Source: Heptranchias perlo
Taxonomy: Eukaryota
Direction of reading: 5' to 3'
DNA: 64,000 nucleotides
Assembly (NCBI RefSeq): GCF_035084215.1
Contig: NC_090362.1
Location: forward strand, 16,554,001 to 16,618,000
Under the pieces are notes generated by a model that was not told where the DNA came from, ran no database searches, and saw only the letters and a program-made list of their open reading frames with translations. Both the position numbers and the translations under genes were made by a program. This document shows positions 30,285-64,000 of this stretch, piece after piece. The number at the start of each line of letters is the position of its first letter. The first letter of the stretch is position 1.

Positions 30285-32906
30285 ATGCTGAAAGCTGCTA
30301 AGCACGCTCTCCAATTCCTGTAGCAATTCTAAATGCTCAGAAAGCATCCTTCTATCAAAAGCTGGGCTCTCAAAGTGTGTGTGCAAATCATCATTAAAAA
30401 GAATGGCCACAAGCTGACCCTCTGAATACCTGATTCCTGTTTCTCCGGGGCCAATGTCACTTGGTCCTACTCGTCTGTGCTCTGTGTACCACCCGCTGCA
30501 CTGTTTCCAAATTTGTTCCAAAGTCCTACAGGGTCGATGTTCCTAAGCTGGTGCTTTGCAGGATTAGAGTGAGTAACGGTACCTGTTCAGAGGTGCTTTC
30601 TTCTGGCCCCCAACTCCACTTCGTGTGCCATGCCTAGAGTTAGAAAAGAACAACAAAGAGTTAAGGTGCAGCCTCGGTGGCAACTCAGTCAGTATGCTTT
30701 CTGCAGATAGACGGACCAGGAGGTGAGCAGCATCTGCTTTGAGTGAGTGAGTGAACAAATGGAAATAAAGAATGGAAAGAGTTGGGCACATACTCTGAGC
30801 TGGGACCATGTCTTCTGTTTCACCATCCCCTACTTTCTCCATATTGTCCATATTGTCCATGCCCTGAATGTCTTGGGCTGCCTCCTCAAAAGGTGTAATG
30901 GAACTGTGGCTGGGGTTGGCGCAGTGGGGGATGGCTCCTTAAGCTGTGTGGCTTCTCTCCCTCTGGTTATGTGCAGTCTTCTCCTGCAAAAGAAGCAGAA
31001 GGGGCTGAATAGGTTGGCATACTTACCCGCGTATTGGCCTGCTGCCCAGGTCGGACATGGTTGCAAGATTTCCTCTCCGAACAAGACGTCAATTAGTCTG
31101 AACCCGGAAGCTCGTTGGGCTCAGCAGTCATGGACTCAGGCAGATGTCATGCCCGTCATGCCCACCTTCCTCCAGTAACAACACCTTAAATAAAAATTCC
31201 AACCTCCAACCATCTGCCCACTTACTGTCCTCCTGGTTTCCAAATGGTAGAAGTGCTTCCAACTCTTTGCTTTTACTGATAGCCAGCTGAAGTGTTGAAC
31301 TGTACCATTTTGTGGGACAATAACCTCATTCCCATTGTGAAGCATTTCCATCATGTTGTCAGCGAGCTGTCTTCAAATATTTTTTTTCCTGTTGTTTTTG
31401 TGAAATTATTAGGTTAATTTTGTTGATTTTCATGAAAGTGTACCAAAAAAATTGGTATTTAAATTTTCTTCCGTTTAGTTACTTCCTTTTGTTTTCCATT
31501 TTGTTCCTCGAATCGATCTTCCTGTCTTTAATGTTTGTTTGAATCGTACTTTTATATTCAATTTAATTTTGACTTCTTTTACAACACACACTGCAACCAC
31601 CTATCTGAACTTACTGTGAGGCAAAGTTGTCCGCAAGATATCACCTGATCGTACAAGCCGCTAACATCAATCTTGATTAAAAGCATTAAAAAATGAAGTA
31701 TTTTAATCTAAGATTTAACTTTGTACTGGCTTCTTTAATTTAAAATAAAATTCATTCTCAGGATTATGGGCATCGCTGGCAAGGCCGGCCTTTATTGCCT
31801 ATCACGAGTCACCCTTGAGACGGTGGTGATGGGCCTTCTTCTTGAACTGCTGCAGTCCGTGTGGTGAAGGTACTTCCACAATGCAGTTAGGTATGGAGTT
31901 CCAGAATTTTGACCCAGTGACGACAAAGAAAAGGCAATATATGTCCAAGTCGGGATGTTGTGTGACTTGGAGGGGAACTTGGAGGTGATGGTGAACCCGT
32001 GCGCCTGCAATAATCCATGTCCTTCTCGGTGGTGGATATTCTGCGAGCTACTCTTTTCTCAGGAATCCAGCACAAAGATATAAATATTAAATGCTAATTT
32101 AAAGATGGTGTTCCTATACACCCACTGCCCTTGCTTCAGGGTTAGAAACCAAATTCACTGCCAGAAATCGAGTTAACTTGCTGCAACATTTAGAAAAACG
32201 TTAATTGCTTTTTATATAAAAAATACTAAGCAGTCAAATGCTCACCTCCAGGCTGTTCCAGCGATCGAAAGGGAAAAATTCTGGAGAAGCCCCATTGATT
32301 GCTGTGTCAGCAGACCAATCTTGGAGCCAATCCAGAAATCATGCTGGATATGTAGATGGGGAGAGGAAGGGAAATGGAGTGAGTTTGGGATTGAGCTGAA
32401 CAGGGATTGAAGCATATCCAGTCAGCAGCTTGCTATTCTGGAGGGTGGAAGACTTTGGATTAACTTCCAGATCGGCCAAGCTTGTGACCCTCTGCACCAA
32501 CCCCCGCGCCCCCCCCCAACCTCCGCCATAACAATCAAACAACAGCTCTGAAATGCATCAGACAGCTTCCCATCAGTGACATCACCAGAGTAGCCTAGCA
32601 ACAATTAGATCTGACGCGAAAGGTCTCCTTATGGGTTAGACATCAGGGTTTAGCTTCTACTGGTAGTGCACTAGTTAATGCATTCACATAAAACTCTCTT
32701 CGACACTCCTAGTACTCACCCGAAATCCAATGTGCACTACTACTGTGCAAAGCTCTGCGCCTGAAGCTCGAGAAACAAAATGTTAACCCATTCTTTTAGA
32801 ACCAAGTATTATGTTTTATGTACTCTGGACACTTGCCAGATGAAAAGCTACTAATTATAAAGATCTAACTTTGCTTGATAAAAGTGCAACATTATTTCTA
32901 TACCTG

Positions 32907-33768
32907 TGTTAGACTCGAATTTTTGGAGTGAAACCAGACGGAGACGGAACTGCTGACCAAGTTAAAGTTTATTAGAAAGCTTTGTGCACAAAGGGAGAGT
33001 GGTAAGCTTCCTCAAGCTCGCACCTAACTCTCAGAGGAACATCAGCACTACAAGCATGTTTATACCTTTCAACAAGCAACACCCACCTGACGTGAAAGGT
33101 GAGGGTACATGTTTACATAACTACAGTGGGTTTCATTGGGTGGTATAGTCTGCCACTCACTTGTCAGGGGCTACCTTGGGTCATCCCATGACATTAAACA
33201 TCTCACATTCCTGAGGAGGACCCTTATCAGTAAACACATAAGTCCCAGACATTGAGACTGCACGGGGGTCTTCACAAAGTCCTGATCAGCTCATCCCTTA
33301 CTCCCTTTTGTGCTGGGGTGACCTTGGAGGAGGAGCAGTGGATATCTCCAAGGTCACCCCAGCACAAAAGGGAGTAAGGGATGAGCTGATCAGGACTTTG
33401 TGAAGACCCCGGTGCAGTCTCAATGTCTGGGACTTATGTGTTTACTGATAAGGGTCCTCCTCAGGAATGTGAGATGTTTAATGTCATGGGATGACCCAAG
33501 GTAGCCCCTGACAAGTGAGTGGCAGACTATACCACCCAATGAAACCCACTGTAGTTATGTAAACATGTACCCTCACCTTTCACGTCAGGTGGGTGTTGCT
33601 TATTGAAAGGTATAAACATGCTTGTAGTGCTGATGTTCCTCTGAGAGTTAGGTGCGAGCTTGAGGAAGCTTACCACTCTCCCTTTGTGCACAAAGCTTTC
33701 TAATAAACTTTAACTTGGTCAGCAGTTCTGTCTCCATCTGGATTTGCTCCAAAAATTCGAGTCTAACA
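32907..33768. mobile_element. 862-bp foldback element: 423-bp inverted arms, TGT..ACA ends, 4-bp TSD CCTG
   Basis: 32907-33329 is the reverse complement of 33346-33768 (about 7 mismatches by eye); 16-nt spacer; CCTG at 32903-32906 and 33769-33772. Confidence 0.9.
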
Positions 33769-34873
33769 CCTGCAATAGATAAGCAATAAGAGTATTTAAT
33801 CTTTATCCATTAGCAATGCCACAGGAAATCCATTTAATTATATTTTTGCATTGTTACATGGCCATTTGTTCCCATGGATCAATTACACTATTTTACTTAA
33901 ATCTTTTTGCCAATTATTTTTGTCTTTACAAAATTTATTTTCTGCAACCATTTGGGAATCTGTATTTAGGTTTTTTTAAAAAAAGACACCCAACCGAAGG
34001 GAAGAGTAAGAGACTTGTGGAAAGGAGGAGATCGACAAGAGAGAGGAGGAGAAGCACAACAGCATAATTTGGAGTGAAGTAGATAGGCACGCAGAAAGAG
34101 AGTGTGTGAAACACAACAGAAAAGCAAGTGAAAGACATGGGGGAGCCATACTATAGCAGGGAAAGAGAAAGTGTGAGTGGAACACAAACAGGAGGATAAA
34201 AAGTGACAGAAGAAATGAGAGTAGGTAATAAGTAGATAGTTCCAAGAAAAGATAATTGGTAATAGAACCAGAGGCAACACAGGGGAAAAGTTTATGATCT
34301 GGAATGCACAGCCTGAAAGGGTGATGGAAGCAGATGCAATAGTAACTTCTAAAGTGAATTGGATAAATACTTGAAGGGGAAAAATTTGCAGGGCTATGGG
34401 GAAAGAACAGAGGAATGGGACAATTTGGATAGCTCTTTCAAAGAGCTGGCACAGGCACAATGGGCCGAATGGCCTCCTTCTGTGCTGTATCATTCTATGA
34501 TTTTAAGAAAAGAAATTGTCTGTGAGCAATGCCACAATGAGTGGATTAGGAAAAGGTAAAATACCGTAAGTTAATGAAAGGGAGAGACATATAACATCAA
34601 TAAATAGTTTGAGTTACACTTTCATGGTTTTTCATATCATCTGGACCTTTGATTACATTACTGCTTATCACTCAATTCTGCACTTACAATTTACTGCAAT
34701 AATATACTTACAGAAGGGGCTATGATTCATTGTGCACAAACACATAGATCTCTGAATTTATTTACTTTGCATCTGTGGAAATGCCGGAAATGCAGTGAAA
34801 AGAAAGAGAACATGAACCAAGGGATAGCACAATTTAAACAAACGAAAATCTCGCAATGCAGTTATACACAGTG

Positions 34874-34879
34874 TTTATT
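34874..34879 (-). terminator. Candidate polyadenylation signal of SORD-like gene
   Basis: AATAAA on minus about 100 nt after the stop; second copy at 34757-34762. Confidence 0.55.
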
Positions 34880-34982
34880 GCAGAAGGACAGTTGTCTGGG
34901 AGAAGTACATCACAGTGTTTGAGGCCTGTTCTGAGGGGACACTTATACAATGGTCAAGAATGTTAACGCGCAAAAAAAAAAA

Positions 34983-35223
34983 TCAGAAGAAGCTGTGCTG
35001 GGGGCACTGTCTTGTTTGGCATTGTGACTGTGGTTGTGAGCATTGTGATTGCGGGCACAGTGATGGGCACTGCTGTGCTTCACAATTCACAAGCACTTTG
35101 ATTCCTGCACCTTTCTTTACCACATCAAATGCTTCCAGGGCCTGCTCTAGAGGGAAACGATGTGAGATCAGAGGCTTTACATCCACCTTCTTTGAAGCTA
35201 TCAGAGCGATTGCAGTGGGCCAC
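34983..35223 (-). CDS. SORD: SORD-like exon 9 with C-terminal extension
   Basis: [79 protein letters not shown]. Confidence 0.95.
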
Positions 35224-38200
35224 CTAAAACAACAAGAATAGGAAGAGGTAACAAACAATAAGTTCATCATCATAGTGCTGCACTCTACACTTCCATCAAG
35301 TGCTAGCCTTGGCTCAGTGGCTATCACTCTTGCCTCTGAGTCCGAAGGTTGTGCATTCAAAGTCCCACTCTAGAGACTTAAAGACAAAATCTAGGCTGAC
35401 ACTCCAATGCAGTACTGAGGGAGCACTGCACTGTCGGAGTGTGCCGTCATTTAGATGAGACGTTAAACCGAGACCCTGTCAGGTGGACGTAAAAGATCCC
35501 ATATCACTATTTCTAAGAAGAGCAGCAGACTTCTCCCCAGTGTCCTGGTCAATATTTATCACTAAAACAGATTATCTGGTCATTATCACATTGCTGTTTG
35601 TGGGACCTTCCTCTGCACAAATTAGCTGCTACATTAAAGCAGTGATTACATGTCCAAAAAAAAAGTACTTTATTTGCTGTAAAGTGCTTTGGGACGTTGT
35701 GAAAGGTGCTATAGAAATGCAAATCTTTCTTTCTATTTTTTATCGATAAAAGTTAAGCACACTTCTATTCATTATTTGCCTCCTGTTATTTATTTATTTT
35801 TAAAAACATTTTCACCTTTAATGGCTTCATAGCAGTTCCACTGAGTAACCCTCATGTCCCAACATCTGAAAGCTGTTTTGTTGTCTAAATGGAAGTCCTT
35901 ATGTTATGAAGTCTGCTCTTCCAGTGGATCCATGGTCCTCCGATGATCAACAATAACCCTGATTTGCAGTAATCTGCAAACCAGCTTAAATGTGAACTCC
36001 TTTTCTACCATTCCCTCCGATGTTGGACATCAAAATGCCCGATTTTCGAGCTACAATAACTAATGTATTTGTTTACAATTTAGAGAACACAACAAGCCAC
36101 TGGTGTTGGGCCATACCAGGATATCCAAAAATCAACCATAAATCTCCTCAGATATATCCACAAGGAGTTAAGTATCTCTTTTGAATCATCTGATCAAGTG
36201 AAGGTGAAGACCATTTTGCTGTACATACTTTCTTGATGAACCTCCACAAATGAAGCCTTTTTATCCATTATCAGGCCAGCACAATCAGTCTCCATGTTAA
36301 ATTGTCCCTACCACAAACCAGCAGGGACTGCTGAAGGAGAAAACCTTCTGAAAACCTCCCAGAAGAGCAAGAGTATCAGTGAAGTTGTAGTGAACATAAA
36401 GGCAAATAACAAGGGCTTTCCCTCAGCACGTGGGTAAAAGAATTCTTGAAGTACATGTGAGGCCATCTTGTACTTGAGCATAAATAATTAGTTGTAAAAG
36501 AAACAATTGCAAGGGCGTTCTGGAATCTGAATCCAGGCAGGCTATCTCTTGCACCTAACGGGGCAAGTCGATGTATCTTCCTTTCAAGTCTCAGCTCGTG
36601 ATCTGAAACCTGCCGTGGAATATTGCACTTTGGTGGTTCTGGTTTAGCACATAGCATTAAGAGAGATCCAGGCACCGGTCGTCAATCAAGCTTAGCTAAT
36701 CTCACAGTTCGGCGAATGGATCTCCAATTTCCTCTTGTAGGTGGCAAGCCATTTTGAAGAAATAGTTGATCTCTCTTCCTTCTATCTGTCACCTCACATA
36801 TTAGAATAGCAACAGTGGTTCTACTCTTTTAAATTGAACGATAAGGAGACACTGGATTGCCCCCGTGTCATCAAACAAAAGTGCCCACTTTTAAAGGGGC
36901 ACAATAGAAAACAAAATCATTAAATACAAAGGAAACTTTTACACCATCCATTACGCACTCCAGTCCCTGCGGTGTCCACCGGTCGCGGAAGGCCTCAAGC
37001 ATACTGGCAGACAACCGTGTGCTCCTTCTCCAGGGCCACCCGGATACGGAGAAAGCCGCGGAAGAGAGGCAGACAGTCAGAGCGACCGCCCCCACCTGCT
37101 GTGTCCTACCTGGGCCTGTAGATGGCCACCTTGGCCAGGCCCAGGAGCAGACCCACGAGGCGGTCCTCTGACTTGCCCGCCGCCCACCCCCCCCACCCCC
37201 CCAATGCCCACAAATCAGGAACGTGAAACTGAAGTGGAACCAGAAGTTGAGGAGCAACCCCTTTAAATTATGGAACAGGGGACTGTAACCTCTCAGACTC
37301 CATATACACGTGGAAGATGGTACGGTAGCATACGGTTATGTTACTGGACTAATAATCCAGAATCATGAGTTCAAACCCTACCAGGGCAGCTGGGGAATTT
37401 AAATTCAATTAATTAAATAAAATCTGGAATTTAAAAAAAACTAGTATCAGTAATGGTGGCCATAAAACTACTGGATTGTCATAAAAACCCATCTGGTTCA
37501 CTAATCCCCTTTAGGGAAGGACACCTACCGTCCTTACCTGGTCTGGCCTATATATGACTCCGGACCCACAGGATTGTGGTTGATTCTTAATGGCCTAGCA
37601 AGTCACTCAGTTGTACAATCTTGCTACAAAAAGTCATCCAGGTCCTAAAAGTTAGAGGTAGCCTGGGAGTCCATGAAGTGACTTAAAAGTCTATTTGATG
37701 GAACGACTCCGTGCAACACTCTCCACCCCATATCCCCAATGGTGCAGGGGCGGACTCCCACGTAGACAGGATCAGTGGTTCTACTGTGTACATGCCTGTA
37801 GGGTTCTGATATGGGCCTAATCTGTCTGTCAGTCATGCCAGATAATTCCAAGATATTTGCCCAAGTGGCTTGTAACATGTTGCCCTTTCAGAATATCTTT
37901 TTAGCAGTAAACCCACAGGATTAGTGAAAGGTCATTCCAGCCATCTCACAGCTGCTTCAAGGAGGTCTCTCAAGCAGATGTTCATTAACAGCACCTGCAA
38001 ACCAGCTCCCTGCAGTGATCCCTATACCTTTACTGAACCTTACTGTTTGGATTTAGAAGCTGGATAAGCACATGAGAGAGAAAGGAATAGAAGGATATGC
38101 TGGTAGGGTTAGATGACGAGGGGTGGGAGGAGGCTCATGTGGAGCATAAACGCCGGCATAGACCAGTTGGGCCGAATGGCCTGTTTCTGCTGTAGACTCT

Positions 38201-50200: not shown

Positions 50201-53200
50201 TTACATTTAAGAGTGGGGCAATTATATCAGATCGGCTGTGTTCCAATCATGAAGTTTATGGTTGGGGGGAGGGGGAATGAGATGTACCCAGAGTCCAAGC
50301 GGAGACCTATGCTGTTTGCTGAAGGGATGGGAATTGTTCAAATCAAGTTCAAGGATAATTTTGTGATTTTGCTTTTTTGATAAATAAGCATAGGTCAGAG
50401 ATCAAACCTGAAACACAGCAAGCCAGCAGGGGAATTTCAGTGCGTGCACAGACAGGAAACTATACTGCATGTACCCTTCTCCTCAGCTCTACACCTACCC
50501 AGGTTTCATATCCATACAACAAGATGGGGAAAGAGCAGGGAAGTGGGACTAATTGGATAGTTCTTTCACCATGGACCGAATGGCCTCCTTCTGTGCTGTA
50601 AGATTGTATAAAAGCTCAATGGCTGTGGCCTAACCTCAATGTCTAGTCGGCTGAAATGCCAATTCAAATTGGACAGAAATCAAATCAATTCATATGGAGT
50701 GGCTGCACTGCACCTGTGATGTTGAAGTTAAAAGAATCACAGGTGCGCTGTACATCAAACACAGTATGTACTTTCAGACCAAGCTGGCCTGACCTGTGTG
50801 GACCCCAGCCCCTCAAATTATCGGGAACAATTAATCTGAGGAATAGAAGTGGAGTCTGCAATACCCACTCCCAAATTCTGGGTGAGTACAGGTTTAATTT
50901 CTTGGCAAAGGGAGAATGACAACTCCAAGGAATGTGAGCTAAGATCGACAATCAAACTTGGTAGGGGAGAGGAAGGGGTGGTGGGGGAATTGAATTTTAC
51001 CTGCAAGTCCAATTTCTCTTGTTTTTGGCTAGTCAATTGTCTGCTGTTCAACATAGACTTGAACATGTACAGGATTCAGCATCCTTTTGGGGGAAGGAGG
51101 GAGTAACTATTGATGCAACATTTCAGGTGAAATACACAAGCAACTACTTACCGGCTCCACAGATGAAAACTTTTTGGCCCACTTTCACCCGTCCTCTGTG
51201 ACAGGCATGAAGCGCGATAGAGAGAGGCTCTACCAAAGCACCTTCTTCTAAACTGACACATTCAGGAAGCCTGAAACGGAGACAATACAAACATTAACCG
51301 CAGTAATGTACTTAAATACATTAAGCCAACCACCACAATGCGTTACATGTGAATCTTTTCAGAGTAGAGGAGGTTGTTTCTGGCATCCACTGACAGTGTA
51401 GCCAGGCAAAGGAAGTTCTTGTAGGAGGTTTAAGGTATCCCAGGTGAGGCGTATTCATTGTGTGGTTTACTATTGACTAGGGTGTTGATGATGAAGAACG
51501 TCAATGTGCGGAACTGGGAGAATTAACTGGCAGAATGAAGCATTGAGGTGTGGTTGGTAGCTTGCCTGCAATGAGTAATGACGCACAGTCGGGGTGAATT
51601 TCACTGATTTCAATGCAGGTTTCTGTTAGTCCAATTAATGGAAATGAATTAATGGAAATAGACCAGACCCCCACACTGAATCTGAGCAGGTGGTCTGAGG
51701 AGCAAAAGGTTCTCCGGCCAATATTTTCTAAAACGATATCTCCTCAACTGCTGCTGGTGACAGATGCTCACTGTTTGGGCAGACGGGCCCATTTACAGGA
51801 TGAATGAGCTTAGAGCAGGAAAGTCCTTCAGGTAAATGAACAGAGTCGATTATGAGCGGATTATTTAGCCCCGACGTGCTTTCATATTCTGGATGCCTTA
51901 GCCAGCTGGACAATCACAGACTGTCTAAACTCCAACCCCTATAGTTGGTGAACCAAGCAGACCATCAGTATGGCCAGATTAAAGAGGGCTTGATTTTATG
52001 AATCCCCAGATAGATCAAATAACTTTTTAAACAGGCAATAATAATAATATCCTTAAAACTGGTGCCGAGGAACTAACTTGAAGCAGTAGTTGGCTTTGTG
52101 GACATAATATCTGCACATAGCCCCATCATCGGGAGGAATACCGGTTGTGAAGCTTGTTGGGGACAGGTTGTAACGTCCAATTCTAACAAAATCATCGTTC
52201 TCCCTGGGGACACTGGGTTCAATGCTAACCTTGTCACCTGTAGCAAAGGAAAAACTTGGACACTTAGTGCACAATGTTTTTAACAGTGAACATCAGTGCA
52301 GGGCTAAGTACTGCTAGTGGGAACTACTTACTCTTAGATGAATCACAGACAAATCTTTACTGGAAAACTTATTTCCTACTCATACCCTCCACGTACAACT
52401 TGTGTTTCAGCTGCTAAAAGATCGTGGGGGGAATTTTAACCTAACTTGCTGAGCGGAAAACTCACGGGATCGGGTGGAATGCCGGTTTTACACTCCGCCC
52501 AATATTACTCTCTGTTGACTTCAATGGAGAGGCTGAGTGTAAAAACCAACATTTCACCCGATCTCGCCAGTTTCCAGACGGGCAGGTTAGTTTAAAATGA
52601 CCCCCTATAATCAGTACTTTTTGATAATTAGTTCAATAGCCAGTAGAGTACTTTGATTGTACAGTTAATGTATTTTTGGAGTCATAATGGAACGTGTCAA
52701 TGCTGGGGGCATAAAACACCTTTTTGTATGTTGGGCTGCCAGGGTCAGCATCACACACTTCCAGTGTGGACAAATGCAGAGATAGGTCCCCTTTTTTTCT
52801 ACCCAAATATCATGCCATATTATCCCCAGAAGAGCTAGCTCCCTCTATTGCATCAGTGTATGTTTCCATTTCCTACACCAGCCATCTTTGAAAGCTCTGT
52901 GTGCGAGTTGATGAAACCATCTCCAATTTGCCCCAAATGAGCTGTTTTCTGCAATGGGCTTGGGCCCCACTAGGAACTAAGGGGTAAATATTCTAACATG
53001 TCACCCCTTGGCAGGTGCCAGGAGCGCATATCATAAAATAGCTCATTCCTAGCCCACGAGTTTCTATCCATTAACTTTAACTGATGGACGATTGCAGGCT
53101 GGGAGTGCACAGTTTTATCCCATCAAGGGCTGGTGCATTGATATTTCTACCCCGGTGTTGACATAGCCCAAACCTGTTTCAAGATGGAGAATTACAGCCA

Positions 53201-56200
53201 GCAGAGTAAGGACACTTCCATCTGGTTTTATGCCCAGGCCTCAGAAGTGAAAGCATCATGTGCCAACCTAATACACCATCCAGTTCCCCCAAATTATTTT
53301 AGGTGAAGCAGCACATGTGCACCCACCTGGTACAGTGACAGAGGTGAGAACTTCGATATCGGGGTGGGAGGGAATGTGGGCTTCACTTTCCCACTCCCAA
53401 CCTGTGGGAAAATTGTGCTTATTTTGTGGACCCAAATCACATTTACACTTGCAGCTAATAAAAGATTCTCCCACTGTCCCTTGCAATACAGAACTGCATG
53501 CAGACTGACCTGCTTTGAGATGGGTCACTCCACAGGACACTTTAGCTATGGTCCCTGAAACTTCGTGCCCAAGAATCATGGGTTTCTTGACGACAATGTC
53601 TCCAATTTTTCCGTCTAACCAGAGATGGATGTCTGTACCACAGATCCCAACAAAACTGACCTTCACCAGAACATCTAAAAGTACAGCACAGCAAGAAAGC
53701 TGAAACATTGGACATACTACATTCTGAACCAGATAGACAGTGTTTCTTTTACATTGTGGAATGTCAGAGAAATTTTATGACTTTAAAAAGGTGATAGCAT
53801 GCTCTTGGATTTATGTTGATTTTGATAGAAAAAGAACGGTACGATCTGATATTTTAATTAATTAATACTGCCAGTCAAGAATTACTAAATGTACTAATAT
53901 CAACCTATCTGAAGGACTCGTGCTTGCTTGTTGGAACACAAATGATAAAAAAGTTTAGAAATGTTCGAACAACCTACTGGGGGTTTTCTATTTGAAGGAT
54001 ACAAATAGTTCAACTCAAGATAGGGAAAGAGAATAAGGTATTAAGCTCCCAGAAAATGGAAATTATCTATAGCCTGCAGTCAGGGCTAAGAAGTCAATTA
54101 GAAATCTACTTTGTCAATGGTAACATGTCTGAGAACAGTGGGTTTGTTTTATCCCTGAACTCTCCACGCAATGCCACAGTAATTAATTCTGGGAGAAGTG
54201 ACTATGGAAGAGGATTATCTTTGAAAGGGTTGTCCTCAAGAGTTCGATTGGCAACTTGAAGGACCATTGCAAGTATCACTGGACTGGAGTTTGAAAAAGA
54301 TTTTCTTTCCCTGCTTTCAAGAAATCATGTTATGTTATCCTCTTGGTTATAATTGGTCCTAGTGGTTTTAGTTGCTTGGGTTTTTTGTCTTACTTTTCCA
54401 TGGTGTTCCAGGCACTTCTAAGGCTGCTGTTTCTGCTTTCCACATTGCTTTCAGTCTTTTTTCATGCTTCTCATTCCATCCTGCTGAGTGGAATTTTCAT
54501 GGCCTTTTGCCCAGCTCTCTCAGAGCAAACCTTGAACCCATATCCTTTATTAAGTTTACAGTGCTGTACGCAGTTGGATTAAATGAAATCCTTTGGTTAT
54601 CAATTCATGCAATGGATGTAGTCTACAGGCCAAGTTGGAAGCAGCCTGATAATGCAAATTGAGCCGGCTCTACACAGCAGAGTAAAAACATTTGAATGAC
54701 ATAAATGTGTGTTGGGTGGGAGAGGGCATTATTCCAAGGCTTTGTAGTGCTGAGAGATACAGATAAGAACATAAGAACATAAGAAATAGGTGCAGGAGTA
54801 GGCCAATCGGCCCTTCGAGCCTGCTCCGCCATTCAATAAGATCATGGCTGATCTGATCCTAACTTCAAATCTAAATTCATGTCCAATTTCCTGCCCGCTC
54901 CCCGTAACCCCTATTGACGCAAGCATGAGTAGGTTACTTGTCTTAAACTGTGAACATAAAATTAGAGAACTCAGGTTTAAAACTACAACCTCAAACAAGA
55001 TTAGAAAACATGTAGTGGTGAATGGGTGGAGTAAATTCCCAGCTACAGCTGTTGATGATGTGCTCATTAACACTTTGGAAAACAGTTGAATAAACATTTG
55101 GTTAGATACGTAACATTAGTATCTGTTTGGGAATGGAACTGGCTATAGCGATAAGTATGGAGTAAGATCATCAAATCTTCACCAAAACGCTGGGTAGAAG
55201 ATGTTGGAGCCAAGCATGGCTCAGTTATGGAATAATAATGGATGTTTGAATATTCTGCAGTTCTGAGTACTCATTTTTTACCTTTTCCTCAGGAGATTAA
55301 ATGAATGGAATACTGTTCAGGACAGGATAGATTGTACATGGTCTAAACAAATAGTGGCTTTGTGGAGGGACCTGGTGCCAATCTGGATCACAATTGCATG
55401 AGGTGAATTATATATGTTAGATCAAAACTGAATTTCTGAAGTTGTACGGAAAAACATTGCTGAAGAGCGAGAGGCGAGAGAAAGAAAAAAAGGACTAAAC
55501 CTAGAAATTACCAACACTTAATCCCTTTGTATGACATTATTTTCTCCCTATTTTAGCAGAGGCATTAACTTATTTAAACAGGTAAAAATGCCTGTATTAA
55601 AATAGTGGACTAAAGAATTTTGAAACACCTCAAAATAAAGGCTCAAAAGATCAAGGGAGCTTTTTCAAATGCCAGATTTTTACTACCTGTTCTCAGGGCA
55701 TGGGAAATGCAGGCAAGACAACATTTATTATCCACCCCATTACCCTGAGAAAGTGGTGGTGAACCTTCTCCTTGAACCGTTGCAGTCCTTAAGCTGATGG
55801 CGCTCCCCCGATGGTGTTGAGTAGGGAATTCAAGTTGATGTGCCACAAGTAGCCACACTACTAGGACAACCCCATAGTTTAGTCAACAAATTTCCAGTCC
55901 AAAAGAGAATGCTGTCCAGACTGCCAATCTGGAATGAACTGTAAGCGCCTAAGCCTAACTCTGCTCCAACTGATGGCAGCTGTCATATCTGAAAAATGTG
56001 TGTAGGAATGGGTGAAATGCTAGCTAGACTGAAAAAAAATCAAAGCAACCTTTTCTTTAATAATTTACACAGCTAACATGAGTGAACTAAACTAGACGTG
56101 CAGTAGCACAGTTTAATGTAGATTGAGGCATCCAACAGGTTGTTGCCAACCTGTAAAGCAAAGGGTATAATGGTTTGAAAATTGATTTGATCGAGCCCAC

Positions 56201-59200
56201 AACTTTCTATAAGAAAACTTAAACAGGAATAGAGAATGAGTAGTTCAACAGAATGTACAGGCATCAGATACATCAGTACATTTTTCATGACAGCATAACT
56301 TTATTGCACTAGAGGGCTGCTTCCTTGATTGAATACTCCCGGAGAGGAGCAGCACTCACAGGGAGCACCGATCGGGACATCTTGGGCTTGTAGTGCCCGA
56401 ATTCCCATCCATCCATTTAAATTAACGGGCAGAATATCGAGCTGATGATTTCTTGATCAGATCTACGCCTGTGTACACCTCTCCTCAGCAAGAGCATCCA
56501 ATCTAACAATCAGCCCTATAACGCTGGCTTTGTTCCCTCCCTCTCCCACAATGAGGAGGGGGGGGGGGGGACAAAGAAACTAATGTTGCTTATTAAAGAT
56601 TTATTTTTCTACAATGACAAAAAGAGAGAACACAGCTTGTAATAGCAAAGTTCTACTGTATTGACAGTACTAAAGGAGGAAGAAGTAAAGTTGTCCATTT
56701 GAATCATTTCTGCCAGGCAGCAACAATTTGGGATTATTTCAGGATGCACATACACTTGGCAGAAATGCTAAAGTTATACTGTATAAATTAGGAGTTAGGA
56801 CATGACCTGACTACGGAGTAAAGGTTTGAAGACAATCAAAGGTTTAAAGCGTGGAGCTCATAGAATATCTGTTAAAGCTTGAATCGTTTATCACCTAAAG
56901 ATTAATAGTATTATAGTATATTTATACAGATTGACAGAACTCTGATGTCCTTGATCCCCTTAAGAGTGCGTGGACCCCAGTTTGAAAACCTATGGGGTGG
57001 AGGAGTTTACAGAGTTTAAAGTTCGCCTTCACCTGTGAACAATATTCCAATCTCAACCATATTGTAAATACAAATGGTATGTTTTACTTTGTTAGTGATG
57101 GGTAGGGGAAACCAGATCAAAAAACTTTCGGTCTTTATGATGCATTTATATCCTTTGTCAAATAATGTTCAAAGCAACAATCTGCTCAGCTGGGCACAAG
57201 GAAGAAAAAACTTGGGATTATTTCAAGATGCATTTACACTTGGCAGCGATGCTAAAGTTATATTGTATAAACTAGGAGTTAAAACCTGACCCAACTGCGG
57301 AGTAAAGGTTTACGCGGTCTGAAGACAGTCAAGGGTTTGAACCGTGGAGCTCAAAGAATAATCCTTTAAAGCTTAAATCATTTATCATTTAAAAGAGTAA
57401 TAGTATTTATATATATTTATCTGATATATGATGCAGTGCCTGAAAATAACAAAAGTAAAGCAGAGAACAACATTCAAGGATTTTAGCCAGGAAAAAAAAT
57501 AGGCTTACCACCAGGGCACAGCTCTGGAACTGGACGTTTTTCCTGTGGAGAGGAAATGTACCTTTTTAAAATAGGTCAGGTCCTTCAGAGATCATTTACT
57601 CGTGATAGAAATAGCAGGTATAATGATTTCTGCTGCTAATTACAAGTAAACTGGAATTACACAAAAAACTACCTCTTTCATCAGGCCAATTAAATTAGGT
57701 ACTCACTTGGAGTCACCCTTGCTTTTCAGCCAATTAGCCTGGATACTAAAAGGGGAATGGCTCCTTGTATCTCCCCAGTAATCACAAGATAAATGAGGGC
57801 GGTCATTTGGCCCTCTTAGCTTATCAAACCAGGAAAAATCTTACAGTCCCTTGTCATTTCCACTATCTGGGTCATGAACGTATCTAAAACACTTGCCTTC
57901 GCTATCCTATCCTGAAGACCTTCACATGTAGAAGTTCTTCCTGACATGGCTCCTAAGTTGATCTTTCACTAGCTTCAGCCTATGTTCCCCCCCCCCCCCC
58001 CCCCATTCTACGTCTTAGCTTACCTTGAAGTATTGCTCCATAATTACTGAATCCAAATCATTTTATATCTTATATACCCTCTATACAAAGTCCCCTCTCG
58101 GTCACTTCCTTCCAAGGCTAAAGAGCCCTAATTTTTCTAGTCTTTCCTCATAACTCAATCCTCTCATGTTAGGAATCAGCTTTGTGACTCTTTGCACTGC
58201 TGCTATGGCATGAACATTTAGTCTCCAGGTTAATGGGTTTATTCAGCATCACTTCCCTCAAACTGGACAGCCACAGGAAGGAGTCAACCTAGATCCTAGC
58301 CATTAGCTCATTATAATGCCCACTTCATGTTTGCCTGCCTGTTTTACCTCGTTGCCAAATACAGGCTTGTGATTCCACAAATGGTGATCAGCAATTGGCA
58401 GAAACTGAGAGTATTCGGACCAAATGCAACTGTGTGGGAACTAGTTTTAACAGAAATCAATGCTCAATTTGAATTCACTAGGAAGGACTAAAAAGCTATT
58501 GAATTTCCCAGAGTAATCTCTATCCAGGACTGCTTCTGGGCCTAATGATACCCATAATATTCCACGACCGGAAATCTTATTAATAGTTAGACATCTTCTA
58601 AAGTGATTGACACTGCACCCAGATTAACAATATCCCCTCGCCACATGCACTTTTCCACCAAGTATATTTTTAACATCTGGCATAAATAATTGAAATGCCT
58701 CTTCTATTCATGGTTTTATGGGTAGGGGAGATATTTATAAAACAGCTTTAAAAAAAAACGTACTGTCGCTCTGATTCGATGAAATGTCAACTCCCAGCCA
58801 GACCCCACGGTAACTAAAGCGAACCACTCAGGCGGAGTAGGATTTTAAGAAGAGGTTGGTTTTAAATGCATGGGGATGAGGGCTTGTTGAACAAGCGGCA
58901 GCAACTGTGCAACACAGTGAACATATAACAATGCGATGCCGACGTGACATACACCACCCTGTCACGCGTTGACAACAATAGGGGAAAGAGTTGCCAAAAA
59001 AAAAACCCTTTGCAAGTCTTGATGGCTGATCGCTAACCACACAAACATCTTTCAAAGAAGCATGAGTAATGATCCAGACTGAACACACGATGGACCAACA
59101 CAACAGTTGCACCAAGACCACCAAAGCATTTAACCCTGCGCCTCTGACTGCTTCCCCCTAAGAGTGGTCAAGAAGTCAATTTATTAATGGTTTTTTTCTC

Positions 59201-59375
59201 TCTCTGTGCATTGATATCTAGATTCCTCTCTATAAGAAGCTGAGCTTTCATCCTGGAGATTTCGACTTTCTCATTTTATATAAAGATGATATATAGTAGA
59301 AAAAAGAGGGAATTGGATTACCAGTTTCAATTCTCCACAGGCTAACACCAAAGCCAAGTTATCTTGCTGCGACAT
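34983..59375 (-). CDS. SORD: Sorbitol dehydrogenase-like (Zn-dependent MDR family), complete 9-exon CDS, 379 aa; divergent, Cys-rich, with Gln/Cys/Pro tail
   Basis: Exons 59375-59322, 57542-57509, 53674-53510, 52237-52078, 51270-51152, 49012-48947, 42633-42455, 41545-41424 and 35223-34983 total 1140 nt, open, GT-AG, with the same intron positions as vertebrate SORD. Motifs GICGTD, LGHE, GRYNLSP, EPLS, CGAGPIG, HRFPLE. Confidence 0.95.
35304..35733 (+). mobile_element. SacSINE1/DeuSINE-like SINE
   Basis: Full head-to-tail copy in SORD intron 8. Confidence 0.8.
36870..37765 (-). mobile_element. Tx1-type (L1 clade) non-LTR retrotransposon 3' fragment, interrupted by a SINE
   Basis: Degenerate [45 protein letters not shown]; resembles the Tx1 ORF2 C-terminus. 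Confidence 0.7.
37316..37632 (+). mobile_element. Second-family tRNA-headed SINE inserted in the Tx1 fragment
   Basis: GAGTTCAAACCC B box; body shared with the 18066/18534 copies. Confidence 0.7.
38203..39848 (-). mobile_element. Degenerate PIF/Harbinger transposon with Myb/SANT-like DNA-binding gene remnant
   Basis: [41 protein letters not shown], intron, [10 protein letters not shown] (NAIF1-like); 3-bp TSD TAT at 38200-38202 and 39849-39851. Confidence 0.75.
40224..40260 (-). ncRNA. Minimal type I hammerhead ribozyme (Penelope type)
   Basis: UCAC-CUGACGA-A-GGAG-aaagc-CUCC-GAAA-GC-UU-GUGA. Confidence 0.7.
40278..40314 (+). ncRNA. Minimal type I hammerhead ribozyme (Penelope type), CpG-decayed copy
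   Basis: UCAC-CUGAUGA-A-GGAG-aaagc-CUCU-GAAA-GC-UU-GUGA. Confidence 0.65.
40626..41170 (+). mobile_element. SacSINE1/DeuSINE-like SINE with internal insertions
   Basis: TGGCTCAGTTGGTAGCAC..GGTTCAAGCCC head; degenerate body. Confidence 0.7.
41424..41545 (-). CDS. SORD: SORD-like exon 8 (122 nt)
   Basis: [41 protein letters not shown]. Confidence 0.95.
42455..42633 (-). CDS. SORD: SORD-like exon 7 (179 nt)
   Basis: [60 protein letters not shown]. Confidence 0.95.
42700..43004 (+). mobile_element. L2 3' fragment
   Basis: Same family as 26757-27099. Confidence 0.8.
43145..43945 (+). mobile_element. SINE-in-SINE cluster (SacSINE1-like)
   Basis: Full copy about 43359-43783 splits an older copy whose halves flank it. 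Confidence 0.7.
44021..44780. repeat. Inverted duplication, about 270-bp arms, about 200-bp spacer
   Basis: 44021-44292 vs 44492-44780, e.g. CCCAAAACAGGATTACAAAGTATAAA / TTTATACTTTGTAATCCTGTTTTGGG. Confidence 0.85.
44679..45137 (+). mobile_element. SacSINE1/DeuSINE-like SINE
   Basis: Full head-to-tail copy. Confidence 0.8.
45780..48800 (-). mobile_element. Degenerate CR1 LINE (endonuclease end to 3' tail), internally deleted and interrupted
   Basis: [66 protein letters not shown]; (TTCTTATG)n tail near 45780. Confidence 0.9.
46769..47753 (+). mobile_element. Younger 5'-truncated CR1 inserted antisense into the older CR1
   Basis: Open RT C-terminus [36 protein letters not shown]; TTCCTATG tail. 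Confidence 0.92.
48947..49012 (-). CDS. SORD: SORD-like exon 6 (66 nt)
   Basis: [22 protein letters not shown]; gtaagt donor. Confidence 0.93.
50088..50186. repeat. (GA/GAGACA)n microsatellite
   Basis: gagacagagacagagagaaacaga... Confidence 0.9.
51152..51270 (-). CDS. SORD: SORD-like exon 5 (119 nt)
   Basis: [39 protein letters not shown]. Confidence 0.95.
52078..52237 (-). CDS. SORD: SORD-like exon 4 (160 nt)
   Basis: [54 protein letters not shown]. Confidence 0.95.
52426..52605. mobile_element. Palindromic MITE, same family as 8984
   Basis: GGGGGGAATTTTAACCTAAC..TTGACTTCAATGG..GTTAGTTTAAAATGACCCCC. Confidence 0.7.
53510..53674 (-). CDS. SORD: SORD-like exon 3 (165 nt), catalytic Zn ligands
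   Basis: [56 protein letters not shown]. Confidence 0.95.
56728..57407. repeat. Direct duplication of about 190 bp
   Basis: 56728-56911 vs 57212-57407, both begin TTGGGATTATTTCA.GATGCA. Confidence 0.85.
57509..57542 (-). CDS. SORD: SORD-like exon 2 (34 nt)
   Basis: [11 protein letters not shown]; ctccacag / gtaagc; size and phase fit the neighbouring exons. Confidence 0.9.
59322..59375 (-). CDS. SORD: SORD-like exon 1 (54 nt coding)
   Basis: [18 protein letters not shown], similar to the NLSLVVHGPGDLRL start of SORD; gtaatc donor. Confidence 0.88.
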
Positions 59376-59634
59376 CTTTAGTCTAAAATTGGTTTCCTTC
59401 TTACTTCTGGATCAAGGGCTAGCTTCCTTTGTGGAATTTATTGGCTGGGATCTTGGGTTGGAAGTTCAGTTGCAGTATTTGTGGCTCTAATTTAAGCAAA
59501 CCTTCTCCCTTTTCAGTTTTTTTTGCCCCTTTCCCCCGAGCTGGTTGAGATGCCCACCCTTACTGCACCAGCAAAACTGTATAACTTATTTTGCTGACCC
59601 TTGCATGGGGTTTAATATGCTCCTGTCATAGACG

Positions 59635-59772
59635 ATATCCATGGCAACCTTTGAGGCGTAGATAGGCGTCAACGGTTCCCATGGTTACGTCTGTGAGGGG
59701 TACGTCACTCTTTACTCTTCAGGACCATGATTGGTCGAGATACCTTTCTTTGAGCATGTTGTTATCCAATCA
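59635..59772 (-). promoter_or_regulatory. SORD-like upstream motif cluster: two RFX X-boxes, CRE half-sites, CCAAT boxes
   Basis: GTTGCCATGGATAT (-) 59635-59648; GTTCCCATGGTTAC 59675-59688; TGACGTA (-) 59701-59707; ATTGG near 59730; CCAAT near 59766. Confidence 0.55.
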
Positions 59773-60208
59773 AAAGCCATTTTTCCCAATGTAGGTCCCT
59801 CCCACCAACATCATAGGAGCTGGGAGGTTCAGGCAGTAAATTATTTTTGATGGGGTTGGAGGGTACTTTCTGTACAGAGCATCAATCCCACCTGTCTCTT
59901 CCAACACCTTTGGAAGATTAAATAAATTTCCCACAGCATTTTTAGTACTATTAGAATTTTTAGGAACAAGGAAAGGACATAAGGTCTCATCTGAAGACCA
60001 TCTCCACTAAAGCACTCATTGGTCTTGAATTTCCTCAGAGACAGACGTAACCGGGGTGCAAATCAGTAACGCAGCTGAACGATTGCGGAAATTTGGGCGT
60101 AAGTGAGTGATGCGTACGAGTACAATCTGCCCAAATCTCCTCGATCCTTTACACCCGTCTATCCATCCCTCCGCCCATACTAATGGCTCCGCCCCAAGTT
60201 CCACATCG

Positions 60209-60298
60209 TTCACCTGAGGAAGGAGGTAGCCTCCGAAAGCTTGTGAATTTAAAATAAAATTGCTGGACTATAACTTGGTGTTGTAAAATTGTTTACAA
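60209..60298 (+). mobile_element. Penelope-like pseudo-LTR fragment with hammerhead motif
   Basis: TTCAC-CTGAGGA-A-GGAG-gtagc-CTCC-GAAA-GC-TT-GTGAA, then AATAAA..GGACTATAAC.TGGTGTTGTAA as at 40320. Confidence 0.75.
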
Positions 60299-60946
60299 GA
60301 GCCTTATACATGAGTATCCTGCAATTACGTTTGCTCGGAGGCTCTCTTCAAATTACCACCTGATTCTTAGGCGCAGCAGGAAACAAAATCATTTTTTTCT
60401 GGTGTTTTATTGCAATTATTTGAGCGGTATTTTAAAATTTTATCCTCACTGAGACCTGCAGCTGTTTCTTTTAATGCGTCTTTACAGCACAAGTCACCTT
60501 AAAAATTGAAAAGTTTCAACAATTGCAGGTTGTTAAGCATGCAGTACCATGAAAGATGGTTGAATGAGTTGAAACTTTCATTTCCTACTTAAAAGAAGAA
60601 ATATATTGGTGTGAGTTTGCTGCTTCCCTTGGGCCCTGATTGTTTACACTGATTTACCACGTTACGTTCGGGCGTATACTTTTTGGGATTCACCGGAAAT
60701 TTAAGGTTAGCTGGACATTGGCAGAATGAGTGCAGGAATGGGCACATTTTCGGGTCTAATCTTCCGGGTTGTGCCCATGGAGGAAATTCCAGGCCATTGA
60801 TTTTAACAAGAACTGGTGCTTCCAACCACCCTGCAATTGGCCGAAACACCAGATCCTAGAAAGTGAGCATGCAGCAGTAACTAGATGAGTGTATTTTTCT
60901 GGAATTGGTGATTCCAGTTGACTCCCAGCTTAGCCAGAAAGCACTA

Positions 60947-61358
60947 CTACAACAAACAACAACAACTTGCATTTATATAGTGCCTTTAATACAGTAAAAC
61001 ATCCCAAGGCGCTTCACAGGAGTGATTATCAAACAAAATTTTTCATCGAGCCACATAAGCAGGTATTAGGACAGATGACCAAACACTTGGTCAAAGAGGT
61101 AGGTTTTAAGGAAGGTCTTAAAGGAGGAGAGAGAGGTAGAGAGATGGAGAGGTTGGAGGGAATTCCAGAGCTTAGGGCCTAGGCAGCTGAAGACACGGCC
61201 GCCAATGGTGGAGCGATTAAAATCGGGGATGCGCAAGAGGCAAGAACTGGAGGCGCGCAGAGATCTCGGAGGGTTGTCGGCCTGGAGGAGGTTACAGAGA
61301 TAGGGAGGGGCGAGGCCACGGAGGGATTTGAAAACAAGGATGAGAACTTTAAAATCGA
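60947..61358 (-). mobile_element. L2 3' fragment
   Basis: Same family as 2207-2590. Confidence 0.85.
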
Positions 61359-63295
61359 GCTAGCTTCCATTAATAGAACCTCTCCAGGATACTCCTGAAA
61401 TATCAGTCTCCATGAATGCATTTACAATACAGTACTACGGTTATAGTGTACCTGCAGCCTCAATGCAGTGTCAGGGCTCAATCTGACACTGAAACAAAGC
61501 AGAGTGATATTCCCTGGCAGAGAGAGTCACACTCTACTTTGGAGTCAGTGGAAATCTTTACACCTCATTTACATTACCATAGAAACATAAGTAGCTCTTT
61601 GAGCCTGTTCTGACAGTCAATTAGATCATGGCTGTTCTTCATCGTAGATGTGCAAGAATTTTGCCCACTCAATTAATCTATCAATGTCCCTTTGCAACTT
61701 TCTGCTCCCATCTACACTACTTACTGTGCCCAACTGTACTTAATGTCGTCAGCAAACTTGGATATATGGCTCTCTATTCCTTCATCTAAGTCATTGATAA
61801 ATATAATGAAAAGCTGAGGCCCCAGTACAGATCCCTGGGGGATACCACTAGTCACATCCTGCCAATTGGAGTACAATTAGCACAGTACAAAGCCCAAATT
61901 GGTTTCTTCAACCCTAAACTTGTAGTGCGACTGCACTGTAGAATAACTTAAAACGGAGTTTGCCATTGCTTATTAGTCATATTCCACTAAATTTTCTGGA
62001 TTTTCTTCCTTCACTTTTCAACTTCACTTAGAATTTATATTATGTTTACAGTTCCTGCATCAAAGACAAAATAATTTGCCTTTCAATAGTGAGGTGTCTG
62101 AGTATTTAAAAATCTATTAAATGCTCACATCTTAGCTTGTGCCCACCTGTACTTAAGCACTTTGGGCTTAGGTAAGTGGGGTTGCGTCCCTACAGAAAGA
62201 GATAGACTATCGTTTCCAATGTGGGACCCACCTCCAAAATGGACAGTGAGATTAAGGAGGCAGAAGAAATAACACAAGTAAACATATTTAAAGGATTTTT
62301 CTGGAGAAAAAAAAGGTGGTAGGAATTTTAACATAGATTTTATTAAAATAATGGAGTAAAAGTAAAATAAAATAAAAAAATATATGAGAGTGAACAAAGG
62401 AGAGAATTGGGGAAGGAATGCCAGGCAAGCAGAAATGCTTTCTCAAATATTTGTTTCTGTCGCGTAGAATTAACCCTTGCTGTTGGCTTGTTGGGATGCA
62501 AGCTCACTGTCTGGGCCGCCAACAAGATGCACCAATGGTACTCTGACATGAGAAAGTCACGTCAACGATCAATGTGTTCACTTCATAACATGACCAGGTC
62601 AATCTTCACACCTCGAGGCGTCAACTGTTTCAGGATGGTGGCCAGAATCAGGGACCAATATTCTGCTATGGTGCTCTCACCTGCAAAAATGCATAGTGGA
62701 GATATGGGCCTGTTTGCAGTCCTCCTGGGGGAGGTGGGTTGATGTTCTTGCTGTAGACCCTTTGTCAGAACTCTGGCAGTGTAGGGGGAGGATAGCTGCA
62801 TCCCTGACGTCGATTCTTTAATGTGAACCTGCCTGAGATAATCTTTTATGTCATCTAACAATCTCCTGCTTTTCTTTTAAGCTATGTCGCAGGTCATTCA
62901 ACCCCTTAACTTCCTGTGATTGGAGTATCTGTTTATTTTCTCAACTCCTCCTCCACTTTATTCGAATTCTAATACGCCCGTTCATCTTTCATTTTCCAGT
63001 TGTGTCCAAAATGTTAACGTTTTCTCTCATTATAAATGCTGTCTGACATGCTGTGTATTTCCAGCATTTTTTGTGTCAGAATATCCAGCATTTGCAGTTA
63101 AATGGTTGTATTTAATACACCTCAAAAATTAATTGCTTTGTGATGTCGCTTTAGCATTGTGATGTCATACGATTTAAAATATCTTTTATTTTCTTGGGAT
63201 TTTTTTCCTTCACAAAACTATGGGAAATGTTCCTAATGAAAACAAGGAGCTGACTACCGATTTTGAAATTATAATGATGCTTAATAGGTAAAAGA

Positions 63296-63530
63296 ACCAG
63301 GGGCTGAGATGAGGAGAATTTTTTTAAAATGCGGCGAGTTATGATGATCTGGAATGCACTCCCTAAAAGGGTGTTGGAAGCAGATTCAATCTTAACTTTC
63401 AGCAGGGAATTGGATATATACTTGAAAGGGAAAGAGCAGGGGGAGTGGGACTAATTGGATAGCTCTTTCAAAGAGCGGGCAAAGGCACGATGGGCCAAAT
63501 GGCCTCCTTCTGTGCTGTAAGATTCTATGA
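63296..63530 (+). mobile_element. CR1 3' fragment
   Basis: GGATAGCTCTTTCAAAGAGC..GGGCCAAATGGCCTCCTTCTGTGCTG..ATTCTATG; relatives near 13760, 23490, 34290, 40480. Confidence 0.8.
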
Positions 63531-64000
63531 ATGTGATACATTAGTGGATGAATGCTTAGCTTGTTCATTTGACATCACTCTGTCTGCTGTTTTAATGGAG
63601 ACGTAAACTCCTTTAAAATGAACAGGTTAATGTCTCTGTTAAAATAGCAGACAGAAGAATGTCAAATGAAACCAACAGGCCCTGGTCTGCTGATATCACC
63701 AGCTGTCATCTTCAGGGCATTGTTTTGACACAGTGACAGGACTATTTACTTAGTGGGAGGAAAAGGCAAATATATCCACTTCATAGCAACTAAAAAATAA
63801 AGTAACTTCACATATGGTTCAGGATTCTGTGTGTAGGGAGGGAGAAGAGGGTATATGGCAGAGGAGACAATAGACATTGTCTTCCTTCTGCTCAAATCAT
63901 CTTAGCTTTTGACATTGCTCAGGACAATTGATACATTGGCCCCGATATTACCAGGGAGGCGGGATGGCAGCAGGAGGAGGCGACTGGGTGCGTGGGTAAC

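Follow-up and report, generated by a model that had tools for sequence, protein, structure and literature searches.

The stretch of DNA analysed here (the window) comprises 64,000 nucleotides of the shark Heptranchias perlo (assembly GCF_035084215.1, contig NC_090362.1, positions 16,554,001 to 16,618,000) and carries on its minus strand a gene for a sorbitol dehydrogenase (SORD) paralog, here called D. The gene is intact, as the first-pass annotation had held: its nine exons, all with GT/AG ends, give 1140 nt of coding sequence with no internal stop, and the 379-residue product, with 26 Cys, is a 100% match to database protein P0143 (source label Heptranchias perlo); pseudogene status was rejected. 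Its Pfam domains are PF08240 and PF00107, and its best PDB sequence match is SORD (E 7e-134; human 1PL6, sheep 3QE3), which is also the best fold match; the predicted structure, with a mean predicted local distance difference test (pLDDT) score of only 61, has the medium-chain dehydrogenase/reductase (MDR) fold with GroES-like and Rossmann domains and is nearest to SORD. D is an intact, conserved shark-and-ray SORD paralog. No second SORD was found within the 64-kb window by tblastn. In window coordinates, the gene is laid out as follows.

59322 to 59375, minus strand: exon 1, coding (ATG, residues 1-18); a short contig from a relative spans 59321-59454, giving a 5' leader of at least 80 nt
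57509 to 57542, minus strand: exon 2, which doubles as the acceptor for an alternative first exon
53510 to 53674, minus strand: exon 3, with zinc ligands C41, H66 and E67, T43 and H46, and pocket residues L47 and I56
52078 to 52237, minus strand: exon 4, with the rebuilt substrate loop S113, T115, G117, I118
51152 to 51270, minus strand: exon 5, with E152 (human E155); the GxGxxG motif begins here
48947 to 49012, minus strand: exon 6
42455 to 42633, minus strand: exon 7, with NAD-binding D200 and R205 and six gained Cys (202, 211, 223, 225, 238, 244)
41424 to 41545, minus strand: exon 8, with S294-F295-K296-C297 (human V296-F297-R298-Y299)
34983 to 35223, minus strand: exon 9, coding portion including the stop codon
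34986 to 35081, minus strand: Gln/Cys/Pro tail of 32 residues (348-379), of low confidence in the predicted structure
34863 to 34982, minus strand: 3' untranslated region, with AATAAA at 34874-34879; a relative's contig aligns down to 34863

The catalytic core of D is complete. The catalytic zinc set (human Cys44/His69/Glu70 with Glu155) is present as C41/H66/E67/E152, and the NAD site (GxGxxG, Asp203 and Arg208 in human numbering) is also complete. Across the D orthologs, partial models left out, C41, H66, E67, H46, E152, D200 and R205 are invariant (15/15) and the GxGxxG glycines are kept (14/14). In eight matched species pairs, identity is 80-88% for D versus 77-87% for the canonical paralog A. 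The first-pass annotation had envisaged altered or lost sorbitol activity; because the zinc, NAD and Glu155 residues are unchanged in 15/15 orthologs, outright loss finds no support, and the conservation argues against a dead enzyme. The His/Glu/Glu role of zinc-site residues 69, 70 and 155 is described in PMC2731777.

The substrate pocket was correctly described at first pass as remodelled: compared with human SORD (1PL6 numbering), D has eight changes, Y50L, F59I, I116S, F118T, A120G, T121I, R298K and Y299C, and only Phe297 of the sorbitol pocket set (Tyr50, Phe59, Phe118, Thr121, Phe297, Arg298, Tyr299) remains in the window's copy. Phe stands at human position 50 in 14/15 D orthologs, the window's D having Leu50, Ile59 and Phe297, and Met59 and Tyr297 occur together in 3/15. 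Fungal L-arabitol dehydrogenase carries Met59 and Tyr297 at two positions lining the substrate site; its Tyr297 reduces the affinity for sorbitol by a factor of about five, and both residues are linked to its low sorbitol activity (PMC2731777). The pocket change in D is likely to be a specificity shift, a reading suggested by the same pocket type in the untailed paralog B and a drift in the same direction in lamniform paralog E; repeated change at the same pocket sites would fit selection for another substrate.

The Cys load noted at first pass, 26 in 379 residues, is concentrated in the core, which holds 21 Cys versus 8-13 in 74/74 bony-vertebrate SORDs. The residues replaced are mostly Ser, Gly, Glu, Asn or Thr, and some of the gained Cys (155, 188, 202) stand where other SORDs have small, well-conserved residues close to the active or NAD sites. 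None of the 14 Cys sites typical of D lies on a hydrophobic column, versus 35% of all columns (Fisher p 0.003), so the gained Cys are likely surface sites; exposure is judged here by column hydrophobicity, with Ala188 near the cut-off, and the predicted structure (pLDDT 61) is too poor to confirm it. The Gln/Cys/Pro tail is likewise present, with 10 Gln, 5 Cys and 4 Pro in 32 residues, most canonical SORDs having a tail of 7. Its five Cys are invariant in 14/14 aligned D orthologs, its Gln runs differ in length, and 19-26 Cys sites are kept in D across sharks and rays; both the Cys gain and the tail are old and conserved. This combination matches what would be expected of an inter-chain cross-linking handle. 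A search with a 34-residue query gave no relatives of the tail at E 0.001, and there was no Atlas match at or above 0.9, a short low-complexity query being a weak test. The MSQQ start, which the first-pass annotation had counted as a further signal, is present and was rejected as new, since untailed paralogs of Heptranchias perlo start MAQQ (P0059) and MEQQ (P0091).

Protein searches and cluster look-ups recovered five SORD paralogs in elasmobranchs, A to E, all of which the databases name 'sorbitol dehydrogenase-like'. Most bony vertebrates have a single SORD. Heptranchias perlo has a record of each paralog (A P0091, B P0059, C P0241, D P0143, E P0162), all on a contig of one and the same length, so D is a paralog and not the only SORD, as had been supposed; a canonical copy and three more accompany it. 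D-type records, some of them partial or fused models, come from 19 shark and ray species, and a species-specific novelty was rejected; among the best 120 matches per search no D appeared in Scyliorhinus or Hemitrygon, though other paralogs did. Within D, the Cys-rich exons 5-7 are 88-94% identical. In the literature library searched, there was no publication on shark SORD paralogs.

The paralogs differ in pocket and tail. Paralog A is untailed with a canonical pocket; B has an altered pocket like that of D (F50, G120, K298 and a hydrophobic 121) in 5/5 species, 10-12 core Cys and no tail; and E (P0162) combines a Gln/Cys tail with 13-17 Cys between residues 36 and 347, its pocket being canonical in most species. 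The chimaera Callorhinchus has one untailed SORD together with P0220, which combines 26 Cys and a 48-residue Gln/Cys/Pro tail with a canonical pocket. E and P0220, both known from database predictions alone, have Cys gains at 142, 225 and 238, Gln/Cys tails of 41-54 residues and 14-20 core Cys. A, B, E and D form a two-by-two set, tail absent or present and pocket canonical or altered, which could be read as two activities that both come in a free and an anchored form. The four independent signals that the first-pass annotation saw converging on D do not hold together as such: B has the pocket change but neither Cys gain nor tail, E and the chimaera copy show Cys gain and tail with no pocket change, and untailed copies have an MxQQ start too.

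Several side observations concern the other paralogs. The tail of E (P0162, P0161, P0163, P0164 and relatives) is a highly conserved Gln/Cys/Leu repeat with regular Cys spacing and few or no Pro, possibly a disulfide-locked helix. Lamniform E (P0208, P0165) has shifted toward the B/D pocket (Thr46, Leu/Phe50, Ser120, Leu/Ile121), and no B was found in those two species. Paralog C (P0241, P0018, P0014) has pocket changes of its own, Met116, Cys118, His274 and Met296, and its C-terminal tail is nearly absent.

Each of A-E is a strongly supported clade. D as the sister of B was well supported in a first tree without E and the chimaera copy, and this was lost in a tree that included both and left out 23 pocket and Cys columns; in that tree, P0220 groups with D at modest support (81/84). 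By approximately unbiased (AU) tests, neither D+B (p 0.24) nor D+E (p 0.37) is rejected, so the D pocket may stem from shared descent, gene conversion or convergence. From the chimaera copy and the elasmobranch paralogs, the tailed type likely predates the chimaera-elasmobranch split.

The sequence upstream of the ATG of exon 1 contains the following elements, to which no strand is assigned.

59675 to 59688: RFX X-box-like palindrome with 1 mismatch, 300 bp upstream of the ATG
59635 to 59648: second X-box-like site with 2 mismatches, 40 bp from the first
59667-59671 and 59702-59707: half-sites of the cAMP-response element (CRE), flanking the better X-box
59730, 59766 and 59786: CCAAT boxes beyond the CRE half-sites

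The site at 59675 is the window's only 1-mismatch X-box (chance expectation 0.26 per 64 kb, or 0.002 per 500 bp), and pairs of 2-mismatch X-boxes within 60 bp occurred 0 times in 2 Mb of simulated sequence. Of the RFX/CRE promoter proposed at first pass, the RFX part is upheld by two X-boxes beyond chance, and the CRE part is reduced to half-sites, no full CRE palindrome occurring in the 64-kb window. In mouse, RFX2 occupies 14-bp X-boxes close to where transcription of spermatogenesis genes starts (PMC4498915); Sord was not found in four supplement files of that paper.

Transcript evidence comes from public sequencing runs of relatives. Ten runs were listed with a match, none recorded as RNA and 8/10 with small shares, and six of the ten (X1, X2, X6, X7, X9, X10) were examined. 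A 1372-nt contig from X2 contains exon 9 and exon 7 separated by 123 letters, about as long as exon 8, and stops close to the AATAAA at 34874; because it joins the two exons through an exon-8-sized stretch, the D ortholog is spliced. In X2 and X6, from two organisms, exon 2 continues into exon 3 and is preceded by a leader of 134 or 206 nt that is not exon 1. This alternative leader gave 0 matches in the window at 3 mismatches, the best site in 57543-64000 having 7 mismatches of 20. X1 and X7 yielded no piece on exons 1-2, which carries no weight as absence. As a side observation, the D models P0145, P0138, P0133 and P0006 begin with other N-termini or an internal Met and not with exon 1, which may be in line with an alternative first exon or may reflect prediction errors.

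The D ortholog is thus transcribed and spliced in relatives, and D is rare in public transcript assemblies. The five full-length D clusters have 0/19 assembly members, and one separate 205-aa D fragment does come from an assembly; the corresponding figures are 1/29 for C and 2/3 for the skate E cluster, with none in the other E clusters. In the skate A cluster 18/20 members are unnamed, the 13 listed all being from assemblies, and the skate B cluster has 8/12. This rarity is a rough sign of narrow expression and names no tissue. The word 'sorbitol' does not occur in the main text of the catshark tissue atlas paper, and 10 of the 20 files of the dogfish supplement, when searched, gave no match.

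The explanation that we favour, tentatively and at somewhat less than even confidence, is that D is a polyol dehydrogenase of shifted specificity that is anchored or cross-linkable through its Cys and tail, probably in male germ cells. On this account, a tailed, Cys-gaining SORD copy would have arisen before the chimaera-elasmobranch split; D would likely oxidise a polyol other than sorbitol, would likely be anchored to a cell structure by disulfide and perhaps transglutaminase cross-links, and would probably be made in spermatids and sperm; and D and E would be tethered forms of two enzyme activities, delivering NADH and a ketose at their site of attachment. The anchoring is suggested by the non-hydrophobic Cys sites, the invariant tail Cys and the recurrence of Cys and Gln/Cys tails on E and P0220, and the germ-cell setting by the paired X-boxes together with RFX2 binding near spermatogenesis gene start sites. 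Glycolytic isozymes sit on the fibrous sheath of mammalian sperm, a parallel for tethered D and E, and chondrichthyans fertilise internally, store sperm and possess accessory columns in the sperm tail. According to a review, the motility of mammalian sperm is fuelled by aldose reductase and SORD (PMC5923003); the passages searched in two shark reproduction papers (PMC11173109, PMC8388383) contain nothing on tail columns or disulfides. A bolder extension, which we regard as possible and on the doubtful side, is that cartilaginous fishes evolved polyol dehydrogenases covalently built into the sperm tail more than 400 million years ago, independently of mammals, with E burning sorbitol and D another sugar alcohol, as a fixed fuel module for sperm stored long-term once fertilisation had become internal.

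Several observations weigh against parts of this explanation. The main spliced contigs in two relatives use a different first exon, and exon 1, the ATG exon behind the X-boxes, is covered by a single 155-nt contig from X2; since the long contigs carry another leader, there are at least two promoters, and the one with the X-boxes may be secondary. The D transcript occurs in each of the four samples listed for one study, and the untailed C is as rare in assemblies as D. RFX factors function outside germ cells too. Because mouse RFX2 and CREM target sets barely overlap (PMC4498915), an X-box beside a half-CRE is not double evidence. On the enzymatic side, the Ser46-equivalent hydroxyl is lost in 2/15 D orthologs (Ala, Ile), versus 0/74 bony-vertebrate SORDs and 0/50 of A/B/C/E, and pocket positions 56, 115, 118 and 296 differ among D orthologs; both are compatible with a possible partial relaxation of catalysis.

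These last observations bear most directly on the stronger form of the first-pass proposal, in which D would be mainly structural, its zinc and NAD sites kept for folding, catalysis dispensable and the tetramer a cross-linked building block. The loss of the Ser46 equivalent, a pocket that differs between lineages while exons 5-7 stay 88-94% identical, and the addition of Y299C, Y50L and F59I in the Heptranchias perlo copy would suit such a protein; the remaining catalytic and cofactor residues, however, are invariant in 15/15 orthologs, and the occurrence of the same pocket type in untailed B and of a canonical pocket in tailed E makes tail and pocket change separable, so that we consider a mainly structural D fairly unlikely. 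Cross-linking could instead take place outside sperm, in an epithelial or other tissue (a layer resembling a cornified envelope, the lens), with the tail as a transglutaminase and disulfide handle. The 48-residue Gln/Cys/Pro tail of P0220 is like SPRR/LCE proteins in composition, and transcripts with the other leader occur in several runs; the tail itself, however, is without detectable relatives in the searches above, X-boxes are not known to be typical of cornification or crystallin genes, and this setting seems to us quite unlikely.

D might also be a soluble isozyme for another substrate, its Cys serving redox control, metal binding or palmitoyl anchoring and not cross-linking. The intact catalytic core, the pocket in common with untailed B and the position of Cys 155, 188 and 202 would agree with a soluble enzyme, which nonetheless leaves unexplained the Gln-rich tails of D, E and the chimaera copy and the 19-26 kept Cys sites, and we judge it improbable. 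Finally, the first-pass annotation had raised, as speculative, a link to the H2O2 generator DUOX, by which D would be oxidised and cross-linked by peroxide from the adjoining gene as one functional system. DUOX and DUOXA, about 15-30 kb left of D, are indeed the next genes recognised on that side; against such coupling, the five paralogs seem to have originated on this contig, and local duplication would account for the adjacency to DUOX; no signal peptide is evident in D whereas DUOX releases peroxide outside the cell, and human SORD also adjoins DUOX. No evidence in support of the link was found, and we consider it very improbable indeed. The elements concerned are the following.

20098 to 20334, plus strand: DUOXA exon (Pfam PF10204, E 4.9e-19)
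5800 to 5991, minus strand: DUOX exon (DUOX1 structures 6WXR, E 5e-17, and 7D3E, E 3e-15)
1854-1973: PF03098 domain match, taken as part of DUOX

Further observations concern the surroundings of D. In database model P0144, B-type exons run into D beginning with its exon 2, an arrangement suggesting that B is the immediate upstream neighbour of D in the same orientation, past the window's right edge. In sturgeon and paddlefish, models P0002 and P0013 fuse PF15101, the meiotic protein TERB2, to SORD, and these fusions suggest a meiotic gene as the upstream SORD neighbour; the sturgeon upstream domain has no match inside the window by tblastn. About 1.1 kb past the 3' end of D, at 32906-33769, lies a near-perfect palindrome of 865 bp with arms 97% identical, possibly a fold-back or LTR (long terminal repeat)-derived element. 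Intron 6 contains an inverted repeat at about 44103-44700 (arms of about 200 bp, 82% identity) and, at 46501-48920, long open frames on both strands of up to 384 aa, which resemble nested reverse-transcriptase and endonuclease fragments of a long interspersed nuclear element (LINE).

Compared with vertebrate SORD (EC 1.1.1.14), D is alike in fold and in its zinc, NAD and Glu155 residues, and like it has no structural-zinc cysteine cluster; it differs by its 21 core Cys, 32-residue tail, eight pocket changes and membership in a five-paralog set. E and P0220 are alike in Cys gains and Gln/Cys tail, whereas they differ by a canonical pocket and fewer core Cys. Fungal L-arabitol dehydrogenase (LadA; 3M6I) resembles D in Phe50 (14/15 orthologs) and in Met59 with Tyr297 (3/15), residues that are Leu50, Ile59 and Phe297 in the window's D; LadA is, however, a separate family, at 37% identity and with a cysteine cluster not found in D. 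D does not descend from the L-arabitol dehydrogenase (LAD) clade: its match to SORD (E 7e-134) exceeds that to LAD (E 7e-70), and it falls among the vertebrate SORD paralogs in a tree without a LAD row. With the anchored or cross-linked sperm proteins GAPDHS, GPX4, ODF1 and SMCP, D has in common a housekeeping fold with an extension or Cys gain and an X-box-like promoter, without sequence relation. Zeta-crystallin, an enzyme recruited to the lens, belongs to the same MDR superfamily but to its quinone-reductase branch, which lacks catalytic zinc.

SORD is usually regarded as one well-understood enzyme. Among the five old SORD copies, pocket type and cross-linkable tail are found in every combination of the two, a natural experiment on the gain of a substrate and an anchor, and the repeated pocket change in B, D and lamniform E points to a further sugar alcohol as a substrate in the metabolism of elasmobranchs. 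Should D and E prove to be sperm-tail proteins, they would represent convergence with the anchored sperm enzymes of mammals and would serve as markers for shark sperm maturation and storage; on the bolder reading, the two together would also give the accessory columns of the shark sperm tail their first molecular handle.

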